Assembly: GCA_013816135.1 (NCBI GenBank)
Contig: JACDEV010000002.1
Coordinates: 33,120-97,119, forward strand
Reading direction: 5' to 3'
DNA: 64,000 bases
From: Patescibacteria group bacterium
GTDB taxonomy: Bacteria > Patescibacteriota > Minisyncoccia > Phycocordibacterales > DATDWN01
Each line of letters begins with the position of its first letter. Position 1 is the stretch's first letter. Position numbers and translations under genes: made by a program. Below are positions 1,608 through 45,461 of the stretch, one piece after another. The notes under the pieces were generated by a model. The model had not been told where the DNA came from. It did not search any database and saw only the letters and a program-made list of their open reading frames with translations.

Positions 1608-1711
1608 CAAAATAACTGTGGATAGCGACATACAACCTAATTTAATTAAGAGGTCAATAATACTTGACACATTTTTAATATATGCTATCATTTTAAATGG
1701 AGGCAAAGGTA

Positions 1712-1927
1712 ATGCCAAATTTGGACAGTCAGCGTGCAAGACTCGTCCGTTATGGACGGAGCACGGGATTTCAATCCCAAAACGGCGTCATCAACATGAG
1801 CGCCGACCAGCTTCAGGCTTCAATGAAGCCGAGACTGATTCCGACGAAAACGGCCGTTCCGCCAACCTGGAACAGCCGTCGACGTGGAGCTTGGAGTTCG
1901 GATACGGATGGTAAGGATCAGAACTAG
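1712..1927 (+). CDS. small basic hypothetical protein in a GC-rich island
   Basis: SD GGAGG (1700-1704) 7 nt before the ATG. Preceded by TTGACA (1664-1669) with an extended -10-like TGCTATCAT. Followed by the hairpin AAAGGCCGTCGCAAGACGGCCTTT at ~1988-2013. Confidence 0.3.
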   Translation: MPNLDSQRARLVRYGRSTGFQSQNGVINMSADQLQASMKPRLIPTKTAVPPTWNSRRRGAWSSDTDGKDQN

Positions 1928-2073
1928 TTTGATCCGAAGTTCTAAAATCTCTCCCTCGTAAGACCCCGCAAGTCTCCCCCTCAAACAAAGGCCGTCGCAA
2001 GACGGCCTTTCCTCATATCTATAAGTTATTTTGAAAAAAAATTTATATATGCTAGATTTTCACTGGAGAAAAA

Positions 2074-19300: not shown

Positions 19301-19590
19301 GTGATTCAAATATAAAAAAACTAAAAGAAACTTCAAAGGAAAAGGACTCTGTTGTGGTTGGAGGAATAATTGAAGAAATAAAAAGCGTTATGACTAAAAA
19401 AGGTGATAAAATGATTTTCTTGAAAATTGCTGATTTGTCCGACAACATTGAGGCTGTAGCTTTTCCTAAAATATTTGAGGAATTCCAAGATATATTAACT
19501 CCTGAGAACTGTGTAGTTGTAAAAGGTACTTTCTCTACTCGAAATGGTGGAAAAAGTATACTAGTTGATAAAGTGAAATTAATGGAGTGA
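16333..19590 (+). CDS. dnaE: DNA polymerase III alpha subunit
   Basis: PHP domain (FIHLHTHSHYSLL), polymerase core, and C-terminal OB fold. 1085 aa. Confidence 0.9.
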   Translation: MQIMASKFIHLHTHSHYSLLNALPKIKALVDEAKKNDMPALALTDNCNLYGAVEFYQACKKKDIKPIIGIDAYVSYRSRHDKQTGIDKERYRLVLLAKNDVGYKNLIKLVTLAHVEGFYYKPRIDRELMEKYSEGLIAIAPSFQSDILSSLKLANTEKAMERLAWYKKTFNGSDEEPNFYLEVTHHPEIKGHDENMTKIIAFAKETKTPLVAANDVYYISPEDRPARETLMAVQQNIDIADRSPETDDLSFISDKTAKKYFKDLPDALENTTKIADRCNLEISIGKWFLPKYIVESGLSYDDELRRIVEEGIPKRKLAKTPELLERMEYELKIIKDKGYAPYFLVVSDLLRYAHANGILTTIRGSVAGSLATYLAGITNVNPIEYLLPFERFLNPERPSAPDIDMDFADNRRDQMIDYARGKYGFDKVAQIGTFGTMAARGAVRDVTRALGFPYVTGDTIAKLIPMGAQGFPMTIDRALKEEPDLKKLYEAESDVKKIIDMAKKIEGCARHISVHAAGVVISPTPLTDYVPLQYDTKGDNKIITQYDMHAVGEDGVGLLKFDFLGIRNLSILADAVKLAEKIEGVKVDIENVPVDDKKVFEMLARGETVGLFQLNGDGMTRSLMELKPTAIHDINLMVALYRPGPMENINEYIARKHGKKPVVYLHPKMKKFLDKTYGVLVYQDDLLMTAIEVAGYTWGEVDKFRKAVGKKIREEMAKQHIKFVEGCITHGGMERKKAEELWNLFEPFQGYGFNKAHAASYGKVAYQTAYMKTHFPAIYMSAVLTAESGNIEMISEIVGECKRMKIPVLPPDVNESFEGFTVVKTTVNNIQPVIKESVDSIRFGLTTIKNFGEGIATSIIEERKANGPFVSISDFLRRIKDKNLNKKSLESLIKTGALDSFDQTHTENFRAMLLFNLDRLLTFNKEERSKETDQDSLFSLMATPAQASEVHLEKSPPSNPTDKLGWEKDLLGLYISGHPLDSFREKLSGRDSNIKKLKETSKEKDSVVVGGIIEEIKSVMTKKGDKMIFLKIADLSDNIEAVAFPKIFEEFQDILTPENCVVVKGTFSTRNGGKSILVDKVKLME

Positions 19591-19787
19591 GAATTTAAAT
19601 AGTTTTTCCAAGACACGCATAAAGTTCTATTGAACTTTTGCTATGCTCGTCAATCAAGAAAACAAACAATAAAATGAGTTGGTCCTCTCGCAAACTCGGG
19701 ATTACCCTCAAACAGTGCTTCGGACTATTCATTTTATTGTTGTTTTCTAATTGACTGTGCAATGTCTTGGAAAAACTATTTAAATTC
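19591..19787. repeat. MITE-like element: perfect 25-bp terminal inverted repeats flanking an imperfectly palindromic ~150-bp core
   Basis: GAATTTAAATAGTTTTTCCAAGACA (19591-19615) is the exact inverse complement of 19763-19787. Inner arms (CAATCAAGAAAACAAACAATAAAATGAGT) also pair imperfectly. Starts 1 nt after the dnaE stop. Confidence 0.5.
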
Positions 19788-19800
19788 TTTGATGGAAAGA

Positions 19801-22497: not shown

Positions 22498-24585
22498 TTA
22501 TATATCTATAGTAGCCTTTGTCGCATTTGACTGTATAAATGATTTTCTAGCTGGAACATCAGTTCCCATGAGAATATCAAAGACTTTGTCTGCAGCTCCA
22601 ATATCCTGAACAGCTACTTGTTTTAGAATTCTTCTAGCAGGATCCATAGTTGTTTCCCAAAGTTCATCTGAGTTCATTTCTCCAAGACCCTTGTATCGTT
22701 GGATTGAAATCTTAGCTTTTTTCTTTTCGTCTTTCTTTGTAGTTTTTTCTTCTACTTCATCTTCTTCAGTTTCTTCAGGCTCATCTGCAACTTCATCAAC
22801 TTCCGCAATATCATCTACGTTTTCCTTTCCAATAATTTTTACTTTGTCTTCATCTGAATAAGCATAAAATACTTCCTTTCCTTTCTTGATCTTATATAGA
22901 GGTGGTTGAGCGATATAAATAAATCCTCCATCAATAAGTGGTTTAAAGAATCTGTAGAGCAATGTCAGAATAAGAGTTCTGATGTGGGCACCGTCCACGT
23001 CAGCATCTGTAGCTATAATTATCTTGTGATATCTAAGTTTTGTAATATCAAATGTATCTCCGATAGCCGTACCCAAAGCGATAACCAGATTCTTTATCTG
23101 TTCAGATTCCAACATTCTATCAAGTCTTGCTCTTTCGATGTTTAGTATCTTTCCTCGAAGTGGAAGAATGGCTTGTGTTCTTCTATCGCGTCCCGTCTTT
23201 GCAGTACCTCCCGCAGAATCTCCCTCCACAATAAACAGTTCTGAATCTTCAGCACTCTTCGACTGACAGTCAGCTAACTTTCCAGGGAGAGTCATTCCTT
23301 CCAAAGCTCCTTTACGCAACACAGAATCCTTCGCAGCTTTTGCCGCTTTTCTAGCTTTCAAAGCTAAGACAACTTTATTTATAATAGCTTTAGCGTCATC
23401 TGGATTTTCCTCTAGGAAATAAGTAAAAGCTTCTGAGAAAACAGTGTTAACTGAGCCTTGTGCCTCAACTGTTCCAAGTTTACCTTTTGTCTGACCTTCA
23501 AACTGAATCTCACGAAGTTTAATTGACACAACAGCGGTCAAACCCTCAAGCACATCTTCTCCAGTGAAGTTATCTTCAGATTCTTTTATAAGATTATTTT
23601 TTCTTCCGTATGAATTAAGAATTCTAGTGAGCGCAGTTTTAAAACCAGTTACATGTGTACCTCCTTCTGGAGTATTAATATTGTTTGCAAATGCTGATAG
23701 TCTGCAAGTTATATCATCTACATATTGGAGAGATATTTCTACCGACTCCCATTCATTAGTTTTCTTCTCAATATAAAAAACATTCTTATGAATAGGCTTC
23801 TGAGTGCTGTTCATGAACTTTACCAAAGAAAGCAATCCTCCTTCGAAATAAAAAGACATGGAAGGAATCTCTAGTTCGAGCTCTGAAATCTTGAATACAT
23901 CGTCTTCTTTTATTTTGCCTTCATATTTTGAAGCGTCGTTTACAGTGATCCTGAGGCCTTTCACTAGATACGCTTGCTGACGCATATGGTCCATTATTCG
24001 CTTTGGATTGAATTCAATTATTGGGAAAATAGCTGGATCAGGTTCGAATACAACGATAGTTCCGTTTTTCTTTGTTGTACCTACTTTCTTTACAAGAGCT
24101 TTTTTCTTTCCTTGAGAATACTCTTGCATATATACACCACCTTCTTTGTGAACAATAACTTTACAATAAATAGAAAGAGCGTTTACAACAGATGCTCCCA
24201 CTCCGTGCAATCCTCCTGACACTTTGTATCCGCCATCTTCTCCACCAAATTTTCCTCCGGCATGGAGAGTAGTCATAATAGTTTCAAGAGCTGAAACTTT
24301 TGTTTGTTTGTGAATATCAACTGGAATACCTCGCCCGTTATCGGATACTCGGATTCGGTTACCCGGAAGAAGTGTTACCTCAATATCGTTTGCAAAACCA
24401 CCCATGGCCTCATCACGAGAGTTATCAAATATTTCTGTTATGAGGTGATGGAGACCATCAAGACCCGTAGTCCCAATGTACATTCCAGGACGCTTTCTAA
24501 CAGGTTCTAGTCCTTCAAGTATCTGAATGGCATCAGCTCCATATGAGTCCTTTTTTGCCTTTTTTCCTAAAATTTCCTTAGCCAT
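22498..24585 (-). CDS. gyrB: type IIA topoisomerase ATPase subunit B (DNA gyrase B or ParE) with an acidic C-terminal insertion
   Basis: GHKL ATPase, transducer and TOPRIM domains. PGMYIGTT and EIFDNSRDEAMGG motifs. Confidence 0.85.
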   Translation of the reverse strand: MAKEILGKKAKKDSYGADAIQILEGLEPVRKRPGMYIGTTGLDGLHHLITEIFDNSRDEAMGGFANDIEVTLLPGNRIRVSDNGRGIPVDIHKQTKVSALETIMTTLHAGGKFGGEDGGYKVSGGLHGVGASVVNALSIYCKVIVHKEGGVYMQEYSQGKKKALVKKVGTTKKNGTIVVFEPDPAIFPIIEFNPKRIMDHMRQQAYLVKGLRITVNDASKYEGKIKEDDVFKISELELEIPSMSFYFEGGLLSLVKFMNSTQKPIHKNVFYIEKKTNEWESVEISLQYVDDITCRLSAFANNINTPEGGTHVTGFKTALTRILNSYGRKNNLIKESEDNFTGEDVLEGLTAVVSIKLREIQFEGQTKGKLGTVEAQGSVNTVFSEAFTYFLEENPDDAKAIINKVVLALKARKAAKAAKDSVLRKGALEGMTLPGKLADCQSKSAEDSELFIVEGDSAGGTAKTGRDRRTQAILPLRGKILNIERARLDRMLESEQIKNLVIALGTAIGDTFDITKLRYHKIIIATDADVDGAHIRTLILTLLYRFFKPLIDGGFIYIAQPPLYKIKKGKEVFYAYSDEDKVKIIGKENVDDIAEVDEVADEPEETEEDEVEEKTTKKDEKKKAKISIQRYKGLGEMNSDELWETTMDPARRILKQVAVQDIGAADKVFDILMGTDVPARKSFIQSNATKATIDI

Positions 24586-24657
24586 ATTGGAAATATTATA
24601 TCAAAAATAAGTATGCTAAACAAGCGATTTATTCATATTTTTAGGCTTAAATTATAC

Positions 24658-24686
24658 TTGACAAATAGTTATTATTGTGCTAATAT
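24658..24686 (+). promoter_or_regulatory. consensus sigma70 promoter TTGACA-N17-TAATAT
   Basis: -35 at 24658-24663, -10 at 24681-24686. SD GAAGAGG precedes the ATG at 24741. Confidence 0.6.
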
Positions 24687-24740
24687 TGTAAATAGAAAGA
24701 CTCACAGTCTAGCTATCTAACAACTGAAGAGGTATAAGAC

Positions 24741-24938
24741 ATGAGAAACTTTATGAGAGGATTTGCAACCGGCTTTGGTGCTGAAGTGGTCATGGGGGTT
24801 CTCCTCTATGTTTTCCTTCAGTCACAGAATGCCCTTCGACCGGGCACCGGAACCACGTACATCGCTGTAATGGGAAGCTTCGCACTGTTTTTCGGCGTTA
24901 TCACAGGCATTGGAGTAATCACCCGGAAAAAAATCTAG
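24741..24938 (+). CDS. small membrane protein (65 aa, two predicted TM segments), GC-rich
   Basis: ORF with a strong promoter, an SD and a strong terminator. Confidence 0.45.
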   Translation: MRNFMRGFATGFGAEVVMGVLLYVFLQSQNALRPGTGTTYIAVMGSFALFFGVITGIGVITRKKI

Positions 24939-24968
24939 AGGCAAGCCGCCACCAATCCCGATACAGAA

Positions 24969-25005
24969 CCTCGCACAGATGTGCGACTCTGTGCGGGGTT
25001 TTTGT
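24969..25005 (+). terminator. rho-independent terminator
   Basis: CGCACAG-ATGTGCGACT-CTGTGCG followed by GGG TTTTT. Confidence 0.65.
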
Positions 25006-25064
25006 ATTTATTTAAACTCGTTGAAACAAAGCAATTTATTCAGATTTTTAGCCTTAAATTAAGG

Positions 25065-25093
25065 TTGACAATAGAATAAATTTAAAGTATAAT
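25065..25093 (+). promoter_or_regulatory. consensus sigma70 promoter TTGACA-N17-TATAAT
   Basis: -35 at 25065-25070, -10 at 25088-25093. The ~45 nt upstream are a near-duplicate of the sequence upstream of the 24658 promoter. Confidence 0.65.
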
Positions 25094-25129
25094 CCGAAAA
25101 GACGAAACGGTGAACAAGTACCGAAAGGA

Positions 25130-25555
25130 GTGGTCGTGAGGAGATTTGTATTCTATGTAAGGGTCCTATGGGCACCAGTATCAGTGGTTGCCCTAATTGT
25201 ATTGGGCCTCGCTATTCTGGATGGTCCAACTACGATTACGGTCGCGGAACGGACAGACATTGCCCAGCCTGGCGACATCGATATGGCTGTGGCAAATCAA
25301 CAGTTCGCCTCAGCCAAGCCATCCGACATCGTTTTCCTGGACTCATACGGTTACCTAGATTTCCAGGAAACCGAGAATGAAACGGGTTTGTATATTCTCC
25401 GCTCCGGCTCATATACAATCCGGATCGGTCCAAAAGCAGTAACCCAGTACCATGCGAAAATAATCAAGAATGGTACAGCGGAGTACGACGCGATTCGTGA
25501 TCTGGAACAAAAACGAAGAAATATCTCCGATCCAGGACCAGTCGTCTGGTTCTAA
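25130..25555 (+). CDS. small secreted/membrane-anchored hypothetical protein, GC-rich (~50% GC)
   Basis: SD AGGAG followed by a GTG start. N-terminal hydrophobic segment VLWAPVSVVALIVLGLAIL. Strong terminator follows. Confidence 0.45.
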   Translation: MVVRRFVFYVRVLWAPVSVVALIVLGLAILDGPTTITVAERTDIAQPGDIDMAVANQQFASAKPSDIVFLDSYGYLDFQETENETGLYILRSGSYTIRIGPKAVTQYHAKIIKNGTAEYDAIRDLEQKRRNISDPGPVVWF

Positions 25556-25580
25556 CCCCGTCACAGAAACCCGTACAGAA

Positions 25581-25617
25581 ATGTACGAACTCTGTACGGG
25601 GTTTTTGTATTCTAAAA
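25581..25617 (+). terminator. rho-independent terminator homologous to the one at 24969-25005
   Basis: CCGTACAG-AAATGTACGAACT-CTGTACGG followed by GG TTTTT. Same GGGGTTTTTGTATT tail as the previous terminator. Confidence 0.65.
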
Positions 25618-25776
25618 ATATCGTTGACTCATAAGTTTTCTGAGACTTTCACAGGCTGACGAGCCGAGAATAGCAAAATCCTAGCAAGGATTTATGTGTG
25701 TTGAAGAAAACTTATGAGGAGAAAGAGATTGTGGATTTGAGTTGAATTTTTGGCCATTTTTGGCTAGACTGTCTAG

Positions 25777-26943
25777 ATGAACAAAGACGATATACAGCCG
25801 GACCTTAACCCTACCGAATACATCATTTCAAAGGATAATGAGAACACGGTTTTGGAATCTTTGGAAAAGCGCGAGGATGCCGAGGCTATTCGCATAAGGC
25901 GATATCTCGATATGTCCGACCTTTCTAGAAAAGACGGTAGTCCCCTATCTGAAATCATAAAGAGAGTAAAAAACCTACCTCTTATCAAAGGTTTTGACGA
26001 TGTGGTTATTCCAGAGATAGTGCCGGCTGACATAAGCTTTGATTTATTTGACTTTGCCGCAGATCATCCAGCCCGTAGCAAATCTGATACATATTATGCG
26101 GACGATAAAAACATACTCCGAACACATGACACGGTCATGTGGTATTACTATTTAAATCTGCCTGAAATAAAACAAAGAATTGCAGAAAATAAAACACTCG
26201 GCGTTCTTTGTTATGGAAAAGTTTACAGAAAAGATGAGATAGATCGAAAGCATATGAACATCTTCCATCAGATGGGAGGGTTATACTTGGTTCCGGATAA
26301 TAAAGAAGCGTTGACGATTGATGACTTGAAAAATATCTTATCTGAAATAGTTAAAGGGATCTTTGGACCTCAAGTGGAATTCAGATTCCTTTTAGACACT
26401 TTCCCTTACACAGATCCAAGCCTTCAAGTAGAAGTTATGGTAAACGGCGACTGGCTAGAGATATTGGGTGGAGGTATGCCAAAGAAAAGCGTCCTCAAAA
26501 ACTTTGGATTAGAAGGCTACCACGGGTGGGCATTCGGATTCGGTTTAGAAAGACTAGCGATGATCAGCTTAGAGCTTCCAGATATACGCCTACTATGGTC
26601 ACCTGATCCTAGGGTAATAAAACAGCTTAAATTAGGTAATAAGTATGTAGAAGTAAGCAAATATCCGGAAATAACGCGGGATATTTCTTTCATTGTAGAT
26701 AAAGATTTCATGCCAAATAACTACTTCGACTTAATCCGGGATATCGGCGGGGACTTAGTTGAACAGGTAGAGATGCTAGATAAATATGAGAACACAGAAA
26801 AATTCGGTGTAGATAAGATTAGTTACGCCTATAGAATAATTTACAGAAGTAATGATAAAACTTTGCGAAGCGAAGAAGTCGATGCTTTGCACAAAAAAAT
26901 AGAAGAAGAAACTATAAAAGCCTTCGGGGCTTCAGTTCGATAA
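25777..26943 (+). CDS. pheS: single-chain (mitochondrial-type) phenylalanyl-tRNA synthetase: PheS-like class II catalytic domain plus C-terminal FDX-ACB anticodon-binding domain
   Basis: Class II motifs HPARSKSDTYY, FRFLLDTFPYTDPSLQVEV, WLEILGGGM, GWAFGFGLERLAM. The C-terminal ~100 aa (ITRDISFIVDKDF...) match the ferredoxin-fold FDX-ACB module. No pheT gene in the window. Confidence 0.7.
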   Translation: MNKDDIQPDLNPTEYIISKDNENTVLESLEKREDAEAIRIRRYLDMSDLSRKDGSPLSEIIKRVKNLPLIKGFDDVVIPEIVPADISFDLFDFAADHPARSKSDTYYADDKNILRTHDTVMWYYYLNLPEIKQRIAENKTLGVLCYGKVYRKDEIDRKHMNIFHQMGGLYLVPDNKEALTIDDLKNILSEIVKGIFGPQVEFRFLLDTFPYTDPSLQVEVMVNGDWLEILGGGMPKKSVLKNFGLEGYHGWAFGFGLERLAMISLELPDIRLLWSPDPRVIKQLKLGNKYVEVSKYPEITRDISFIVDKDFMPNNYFDLIRDIGGDLVEQVEMLDKYENTEKFGVDKISYAYRIIYRSNDKTLRSEEVDALHKKIEEETIKAFGASVR

Positions 26944-35949: not shown

Positions 35950-36372
35950 ATGATTTAAGTTAGATTAATTCTAACTTATTAATTTTATAAAAGCCAAGGA
36001 GAACAACACACTGTCAGGTTTTCCTTCGCCTCTCAAACTTGTCGTCACGTGGCCGTTCGCCTCCTTACAGGAGCAGTACACCTTGCCTGGTTTTTTCATT
36101 CACTTTGTTCTGAAAAAACCAGGCAAGGTCTTGCGACTGGGACCCTTATCCCAGTCTCACCTCTCAGGTAAACCTGACAGCGTGGCACGCAAAAATCCGC
36201 TTTCGCGGATTTTTTCGTGAGCCACCTTGTCTTCTGGGAAACACCACAAGAGTACTTCCATTTGCTAAAGCAAATTAGGTCGCCCACGGTTTTCCCAATC
36301 CTTCCTCCACGGGAAACTCCCGTTTCCCGACCCCTTCCCGCTGACAGGAAAATCTCACTAATGTGAGATTTT

Positions 36373-36448
36373 TGGAGCCACCTGTCAGGTTTGAACTGAC
36401 GACCTGCCGTTTACAAAACGGCTGCTCTACCAACTGAGCTAAGGTGGC
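36373..36448 (-). tRNA. tRNA-Thr (anticodon UGU), CCA encoded
   Basis: Reverse complement GCCACCTTAGCTCAGTTGGTAGAGCAGCCGTTTTGTAAACGGCAGGTCGTCAGTTCAAACCTGACAGGTGGCTCCA folds as a cloverleaf. 7-bp acceptor stem, anticodon loop TTTGTAA, T-arm GTCAG/CTGAC. Confidence 0.85.
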
Positions 36449-40037: not shown

Positions 40038-40164
40038 TGTGTTAAGTATAGCAATTAAGAACCAAGAAAATAGCCCTGGATGCTAGGCGCGGAAAGATTT
40101 TCGAGTGAGATGTACATTGAGTACATTGAACGAGAAAATCTGCATCGCAACAACGCAGACAGGG

Positions 40165-43192: not shown

Positions 43193-43407
43193 TCGGCCAG
43201 TATATAGAAAAGGTGATAAAAAATCAACCTCCGATCACAATTACAAAATCTCTTTCTCATCATATCTTTTTTTGAGCCACATAAAAGCCTACTGGCTTTT
43301 TGTTCTGTCTCGGCTACCCGCCTGCGAATGCTCCAAAAAAAATATTACTCGACGAGATTTTGTACACTAGCTCAAATCTAAGTTTCGAAGTTACTTATTG
43401 TTATCTG

Positions 43408-45350: not shown

Positions 45351-45461
45351 AAGTTTTTAAAATTGCTTTAGATGCTAGGCGTGTGAGATTTTATGAGTGA
45401 GCCGTACATTTAGTACGGTGAAAGAATAAAATTGAAACACAACAACGCAGATGAAGTGTTT

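Follow-up and report, generated by a model that had tools for sequence, protein, structure and literature searches.

Two adjacent, putatively moron-like units with homologous flanks and unrelated small ORFs between gyrB and pheS of a Patescibacteria group bacterium

Organization of the gyrB-pheS gap

The analyzed stretch of DNA, a window of 64 kb with a GC content of 36.9%, corresponds to a contig in a metagenome-assembled genome of the Patescibacteria group (locus tags H0W91_00915, H0W91_00920 and H0W91_00925). All genes called in it are housekeeping or hypothetical genes, such as gyrB and those for PheRS, a ProRS-like protein and DnaE, and no Pfam domain of an integrase, transposase or recombinase was found in any called gene of the 64-kb window. 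The locus described here fills the 1.2-kb gap between the divergently transcribed gyrB and pheS and is made of two consecutive units, each with an upstream (P) module, a promoter, one small ORF and a terminator (T) module (Table 1).

Table 1. Coordinates of the features in and around the gyrB-pheS gap (window positions).
Feature	Position	Strand	Description
gyrB	22498-24585	minus	ORF and domain calls; ATG at 24585
Putative gyrB promoter	24595-24623	minus	-35 TTGTTT 24623-24618, 17-nt spacer, extended -10 TGATATAAT; read from sequence
P module, copy 1	24618-24664	+	AT-rich with T-tracts; ends in -35 TTGACA plus A
Promoter 1	24658-24686	+	TTGACA-17-TAATAT with TG extension; predicted start near 24693
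ORF1	24741-24938	+	65 aa; two hydrophobic helices, positive N- and C-termini; AGAGG 8 nt before ATG 24741
T module, copy 1	24957-25024	+	Hairpin 24965-25002, TTTTTGTATT tail, ends TCGTTGA
P module, copy 2	25024-25071	+	By alignment to copy 1
Promoter 2	25065-25093	+	TTGACA-17-TATAAT; predicted start near 25100
ORF2	25136-25555	+	139 aa from GTG 25136; AGGAG 5 nt upstream
T module, copy 2	25557-25627	+	Stem arms 25567-25579/25591-25603, TTTTTGTATT tail, ends TCGTTGA
pheS (single-chain PheRS)	25777-26943		Class II core and FDX-ACB domain

The duplicated upstream block that an earlier note on this DNA had described is present and extends to 47 nt. In a gapped alignment, the two P modules are identical at 41 of 47 positions with one indel (87.2%); the 43-nt stretch 24622-24664 is 86% identical to 25029-25071, and a 31-nt core with no obvious dyad or repeat reaches about 90%. 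The strings given as examples of the two modules are ATTTATTCANATTTTTAGSCTTAAATTA and CTCTGTRCGGGGTTTTTGTATT. The mismatches are clustered, with TAC in one copy and AGG in the other directly before the -35 hexamer, and the homology on the 5' side ends sharply after it. The promoter spacer, the -10 and the 5'UTR of unit 1 could not be aligned with those of unit 2 (p=0.70). Despite these unalignable spacers, the -10 lies exactly 17 nt after the -35 in both units, and each has the near-consensus sigma-70 promoter proposed earlier; promoter 2 matches the consensus at 12/12 positions and is the sole such match in the window when both strands are scanned. Other GC-rich islands with strong promoters occur in the window, and at least one of them (36000-36375) is a candidate for a highly structured RNA.

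The T modules, previously described as homologous terminators, indeed share 57 of 66 aligned positions with seven gap columns (86.4%); the ungapped stretch 24986-25024 versus 25589-25627 is 79% identical. In each, a G+C-rich stem of 13-15 bp leads into TTTTTGTATT, the signature of a strong intrinsic terminator. A C-G pair in the middle of the stem of terminator 1 is replaced by T-A in terminator 2, and this compensatory change indicates that both hairpins are maintained. The mismatches gather in a 9-nt stretch 3' of the T-tail. The TCGTTGA end of the first T module adjoins the AAACAA start of the second P module without a gap (1-2 nt overlap). Behind the second T module, TCGTTGA continues into unrelated pheS-proximal DNA, and the sequence left of the first P module showed no significant similarity to anything.

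The first P module also overlaps the putative gyrB promoter. Its first hexamer, AAACAA, is the putative gyrB -35 (TTGTTT) read on the other strand; the gyrB -10 hexamer occupies 24600-24595, which predicts a transcript that begins about 3 nt upstream of the ATG of gyrB. The second P module carries a copy of the gyrB -35 without a usable -10, the corresponding position reading TACAAA. Judging from these signals, the locus would consist of two independent monocistronic units, each of which is predicted to be expressed.

Protein-coding potential of the two interiors

The 65-aa ORF with two transmembrane segments reported for unit 1 was recovered as two hydrophobic segments (ORF1). For unit 2, the 141-aa ORF of the earlier note exists from GTG 25130, but GTG 25136 is the better start and gives 139 aa, as does the database entry; the description of its product as secreted was not upheld, since it has an N-terminal hydrophobic helix only and no obvious signal-peptidase site. 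Behind this N-terminal transmembrane helix lie about 110 aa for which a domain with many beta-strands is predicted. A single-sequence AlphaFold model of ORF2 (pLDDT 47) was confident for the N-terminal helix only and too poor for a fold search. Both proteins begin with MR-x-F and a hydrophobic helix.

The interiors of both units are protein-coding. This follows from the well-placed Shine-Dalgarno sites, the codon-position composition of each ORF, which has the same shape as that of gyrB (periodicity p=5e-4 each), the extent to which the ORFs fill the promoter-terminator intervals (p=0.05 and p=0.0008 for the pair, dinucleotide shuffles), the hydrophobic helices, the ordinary mRNA-like folding and the lack of an Rfam match. 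The alternative that the interiors are non-coding RNA genes with accidental ORFs draws on the GC-rich islands with strong promoters elsewhere in the window, at least one of which is the kind of structured candidate mentioned above, on the lack of homologs of the ORFs, and on the fold z-scores of the whole transcripts, terminators included (-2.3 for unit 1 and -4.7 for unit 2). However, the excess in the whole transcripts is due to the terminators: the interiors without them reach z-scores of -0.3 and -2.2, are equal on both strands, and fall within the range of neighboring mRNAs (+0.7 to -2.7). Together with the significant periodicity, ORF lengths that are improbable by chance, the Shine-Dalgarno sites, the transmembrane-like helices, and Rfam searches that gave nothing relevant at the gathering cut-off or at E<=10, this makes a non-coding origin extremely unlikely.

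The small size, hydrophobicity and strong promoter of ORF1 recall the toxins of type I toxin-antitoxin systems, in which case an antisense RNA would be transcribed from promoter-like sites on the minus strand of the second P module. Two such sites with 9/12 matches (25071-25044 and 25114-25086) do point toward terminator 1 and ORF1. They are weak, however, the copy of the gyrB -35 has TACAAA in place of a usable -10, and a terminator for the antisense RNA was not found. With 65 aa and two helices, ORF1 is longer than toxins of this type usually are, and ORF2 falls outside the scheme altogether; the unit-1 interior has no excess mRNA structure (z=-0.3), and neither PADLOC nor Pfam lends support. 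A toxin-antitoxin function is accordingly regarded as highly improbable. ORF1 is predicted to form a two-helix membrane hairpin and ORF2 a membrane-anchored protein with a probably beta-rich outer domain, which would place both in the cell envelope.

Homologs and base composition of the ORFs

A word-indexed search of 5.8 billion protein clusters with ORF1 and ORF2 returned the entries of this genome only, and nothing above threshold was detected for either in Pfam, NCBIfam, PHROGs, PADLOC or PDB. The similarity of ORF1 to the Pfam family DUF5665 (14.4 bits, E=0.042) lies below the 27-bit gathering cut-off. When ORF2 was compared by HMMER with 1.84 billion representatives, three weak matches (E 2e-5 to 1e-3, each summed over repeats) were obtained, all to Ig-like or beta-sandwich repeats of very large surface proteins; the part of ORF2 concerned is about residues 40-120. 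These matches hint at a beta-rich extracellular domain, without a family assignment.

The two ORFs are also unrelated to each other, as had been proposed: local scores between the interiors are at chance level for DNA (p=0.68) and protein (p=0.45), and no similarity appeared on either strand, in any frame or by alignment from the 3' ends. No paralog of either interior occurs in the roughly 79 kb of genomic sequence examined.

Both ORFs are richer in GC than their surroundings, in agreement with the earlier observation (48.5% for ORF1 and 48.6-48.8% for ORF2 versus 36.9% for the window). Their GC3 values of 0.53 and 0.49 exceed the mean of 45 window genes (0.29, sd 0.054) by 3.7 to 4.4 sd. High expression does not account for this shift, because ribosomal and translation genes in the same window attain no more than 0.36-0.40. 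A foreign origin of ORF1 and ORF2 is the most economical reading of their composition.

Occurrence of the modules in other sequences

Each module pattern is found exactly twice in the 64 kb, where dinucleotide shuffles expect 0.00. A search for additional copies of the upstream block and the terminator, as suggested in the earlier note, yielded none in the window and its extensions of about 15 kb, about 79 kb in all, even when up to 6 mismatched bases were tolerated. When a degenerate 21-base pattern of the P block was searched for as exact matches, it had 2 hits in a genome collection, 10 in a metagenome collection and 2 in a viral collection; the present genome was not itself part of the first two. 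These matches were attributed to chance, being AT-rich, with unrelated flanks and no promoter following them; the same judgment was reached for a group of gut-phage contigs that match at 27/29 nt, whose flanks are unrelated as well. The terminator pattern had no match in viral contigs, and searches of phage and plasmid DNA with the locus gave no match.

Three assemblies hold the locus, namely the contig of the metagenome-assembled genome, a contig of GCA_020064125.1 and the Logan assembly of SRR11719869. Comparison over 12.4 kb and 2.2 kb showed 100% identity among them, and a single sample is probably the source of all three. Since the separate Logan assembly has the same junctions, these are not an artefact specific to one assembler. 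Among about 15 billion proteins, the nearest PheRS shares 73% identity. Six loci from the nearest relatives by PheRS (71-73%) each have another gene upstream of pheS, and gyrB never takes this position; because none of these loci is syntenic, the gyrB-pheS junction is, from gene order, a lineage-specific synteny breakpoint.

These data bear on the suggestion that the locus is a true cassette array. The 115-nt element formed by the first T module and the second P module (24957-25071) would then be a recombination junction, and small promoter-ORF cargos would leave as circles and integrate anew between junctions with the help of RecA or an unknown recombinase, so that the content of the expression slot would be hypervariable across the population. 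The anatomy is consistent with this, with a half-junction, cargo 1, a full junction, cargo 2 and a half-junction in succession; the junction halves are equally diverged, the cargos are unrelated, orphan and foreign in composition, and the locus sits at a lineage-specific breakpoint. Nevertheless, there are two units only, neither module recurs in the 79 kb, the collections gave chance matches to the block pattern and none in viral contigs to the terminator pattern, no recombinase domain is encoded in the window, no core of the GTTRRRY type can be read from the sequence, and the three assemblies do not vary. A cassette array is thus quite improbable. Less probable again is the more specific proposal that the 115-nt element is the junction of a Patescibacteria cassette system, independent of a recombinase or served by an unknown one, that shuffles small surface-protein genes with promoters of their own into a strongly expressed site beside gyrB; if true, the envelope proteins of an episymbiont would vary at the level of the population. 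Of the earlier picture, the duplicated scaffold carrying different cargo of foreign composition stands, while the reusable slot or hypervariable locus has no positive support: no further copies, no recombinase and no variation were found, and across the three assemblies (probably one sample) and about 79 kb the locus is invariant, has the form of a local duplication and lacks further copies.

Evolution of the locus

The reading that we favor, with a probability of roughly 55%, is that the locus comprises two moron-like units for small orphan envelope proteins, the flanks of which were duplicated in tandem and at least one cargo of which was replaced by foreign DNA. A single promoter-gene-terminator unit beside the gyrB promoter would have undergone a tandem duplication of the segment from 24618 to TCGTTGA. 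At least one interior, beginning directly behind the -35 and ending shortly ahead of the terminator hairpin, would then have been swapped for unrelated DNA of foreign composition, probably with the conserved flanks serving as homology arms, or else by illegitimate insertion. This order of events is a reconstruction from one genome and may be read as provisional.

Several features of the flanks are in line with this scheme. The P and T modules are equally diverged (87.2% versus 86.4%), as fits a single duplication event, and the direct abutment of the first T module on the second P module, together with the run of the second T module into unrelated DNA, has the footprint of a tandem duplication. 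The presence of the putative gyrB -35 in the first P module suggests that this copy is the native divergent promoter region, and the useless copy of this hexamer in the second P module, with TACAAA, suggests that copy 2 is derived, or at least that the boundary of the duplication is arbitrary rather than functional. As interiors that were 87% identical would still align, at least one of them would have been replaced after the duplication or have arrived with homologous flanks. The spacing of the promoters speaks against replacement by a random foreign insert, since such DNA would not supply a -10 at exactly 17 nt; this feature is easier to reconcile with cargo that moved between units already alike in design, as the cassette idea has it, or with a duplication so old that conservation is confined to functional elements.

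The latter leads to a rival account in which the units are ancient tandem paralogs, descended from one small membrane-protein gene. Their coding regions would have diverged past recognition and changed in length, while selection or gene conversion kept the functional parts of the flanks, namely the upstream regulatory block, the -35, the terminator arms and the U-tail. The conservation of the flanks is indeed mosaic, the -10 stands at 17 nt in both units although spacer and 5'UTR are unalignable, pairing in the terminator stem is preserved by a compensatory change, and both proteins open with MR-x-F and a hydrophobic helix. The mismatches gather between functional elements, and their clustering leaves room for flanks kept by selection around anciently diverged paralogs. 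On the other hand, no similarity is left between the interiors in DNA (p=0.68) or protein (p=0.45), and the 31-nt core, at about 90% identity and with no obvious dyad or repeat, exceeds what a typical operator needs. The block lies upstream of no other promoter in the 79 kb, and divergence in situ would leave the atypical GC3 of both ORFs unexplained. Ancient paralogy is therefore considered rather unlikely.

Should the duplication of flanks with replacement of cargo be correct, the locus would offer a clean example from the candidate phyla radiation of orphan small genes of foreign composition gaining expression through duplicated native signals. It would help the annotation of small envelope proteins in candidate-phyla-radiation genomes and would not be surprising. 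If populations showed varied cargo between the same flanks, ultra-small symbionts would seem to vary their surface proteins through a simple cassette mechanism driven by homology.

Comparison with known genetic elements

Correia elements, REP/BIME and RUP are dispersed repeats with tens to hundreds of copies and terminal inverted repeats. Like the modules described here, they are short non-coding repeats at gene boundaries with promoter or terminator function. Assignment to a dispersed intergenic repeat (REP, MITE or Correia-like) was rejected, as about 79 kb of sequence contains no more than two copies of the modules, which lie side by side and have no inverted termini.

Integron arrays resemble the locus in that unrelated small ORFs in tandem are separated by a repeated element capable of forming hairpins. 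However, integron cassettes are normally promoterless, whereas the units here carry their own strong promoters, their hairpins are intrinsic terminators with U-tails, and there are two units only. The integron reading was rejected because no IntI-type recombinase is encoded in the 64 kb and the junctions GTTGAAA/GTTGACT do not match GTTRRRY.

In E. coli, ldr and ibs/sib, examples of repeated small-protein or type I toxin loci, are tandem intergenic repeats for small hydrophobic proteins with conserved promoter and terminator regions. The conserved flanks are shared with the present locus. In ldr and ibs/sib, however, the coding regions are homologous too and each repeat contains an antisense RNA gene, whereas the cargos here are unrelated and no convincing antisense gene was seen.

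Phage morons resemble the units in architecture. A moron is an ORF in a phage genome with its own promoter and factor-independent terminator and a deviant composition (Cumby, Davidson and Maxwell, 2012; PMC3594210). Morons sit in phage genomes, between genes that adjoin each other in related phages, whereas the units here lie among chromosomal housekeeping genes and have no PHROG or phage DNA match, and the homologous flanks of the two units are not a moron feature; filing the units as phage morons was thus rejected on the phage context, although their structure agrees. Like a moron, each of the two units holds a single small ORF, is equipped with a promoter and a terminator for it, and has a GC content unlike that of its neighbors, which in morons implies horizontal acquisition.

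Putative structured elements in intergenic regions

An intergenic element, its core spanning about 80–125 nt (TCTGCGTTG...GTACT-A-ATGTAC...CGCGCCT), is present in four copies, each located directly 3' of the stop codon of a minus-strand gene. The four genes are unrelated, comprising lexA-like, RRM protein, L31, and transketolase genes. The copies share a pairwise identity of 73–87%, and RNAalifold predicted 19 base pairs, with compensatory changes in seven of them. No Rfam family matched the element at the gathering score. It may represent a 3'-UTR element or a small-RNA family.

The GC-rich stretch next to tRNA-Thr folds far better than its shuffled versions (z = -9.25), shows no codon periodicity, and even at E ≤ 1 has no match in Rfam. 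Candidate identities are a novel structured RNA about 340 nt in length and a leader, and several of the hairpins resemble bidirectional terminators. Downstream of dnaE, nested inverted repeats (19590–19788) form a hairpin about 200 nt long.

Coordinates and main characteristics of the additional features
Feature	Position	Strand	Characteristics
Four-copy intergenic element	641–767; 61062–61187; 40067–40159; 45359–45451	- (as read)
GC-rich unit	1664–2012	+	54% GC; promoter, GGAGG site, 71/76-aa ORF, terminator
Perfect inverted repeat, 26 nt	19590–19615 / 19763–19788		Encloses a second inverted repeat
Fourth GC-rich orphan-like gene, 135 aa	19875–20282	-	GC3 0.45; own promoter and terminator
113-nt element	25618–25730	+	Follows terminator 2, precedes the pheS promoter
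Single-chain PheRS gene (pheS)	25777–26943
GC-rich intergenic stretch	36000–36375	-	~50% GC; flanked by tRNA-Thr (36373–36448) and the 5' end of a 1295-aa AAA_5 gene

GC-rich units and sequences related to the main locus

Besides the two GC-rich orphan ORFs between gyrB and pheS, two further GC-rich units with their own promoter and terminator were found (see table). The promoter of the unit at 1664–2012 is near-consensus (TTGACA-16-TATCAT with TG). Its 71/76-aa ORF is called by gene callers; codon periodicity was not seen in it (p = 0.23), and the encoded peptide appears disordered. This unit may encode a small RNA and not a protein.

The upstream block, the AT-rich module that ends in the -35 hexamer at the main locus, is identical at 27 of 29 positions to the gut-phage sequence AATTTATTCAAATTTTTAGGCTTAAATTAGCCC (L013, L015, L020, and L021, from human-gut metagenome and viral contigs). 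With unrelated flanks and no promoter downstream, this match was judged to be a chance similarity in AT-rich DNA.

Following terminator 2, the terminator copy behind the second orphan ORF, the 113-nt element contains a perfect 14-bp closing stem (25628–25641 / 25705–25718) and two inner hairpins (folding z = -5.9). Its right part resembles the L25 gene leader at 43238–43273 (81% over 36 nt), and the element is not conserved ahead of the pheS genes of relatives.

Starts and architecture of pheS and gyrB

The pheS transcript appears to be leaderless (25745–25779), with a -10-like TAGACT ending 7 nt ahead of the ATG and no Shine-Dalgarno site. The pheS loci of relatives (L003, L025, L027, and L028) carry TGCTATCAT about 8–10 nt upstream of the ATG. 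The gyrB gene likewise looks nearly leaderless, as TGATATAAT ends 9 nt upstream of its ATG.

The PheRS consists of one 388-aa chain with a class II alpha core and a C-terminal FDX-ACB domain. Proteins similar to it number in the thousands in Paceibacteria-type genomes, and a single chain of this composition is the architecture of mitochondrial PheRS.
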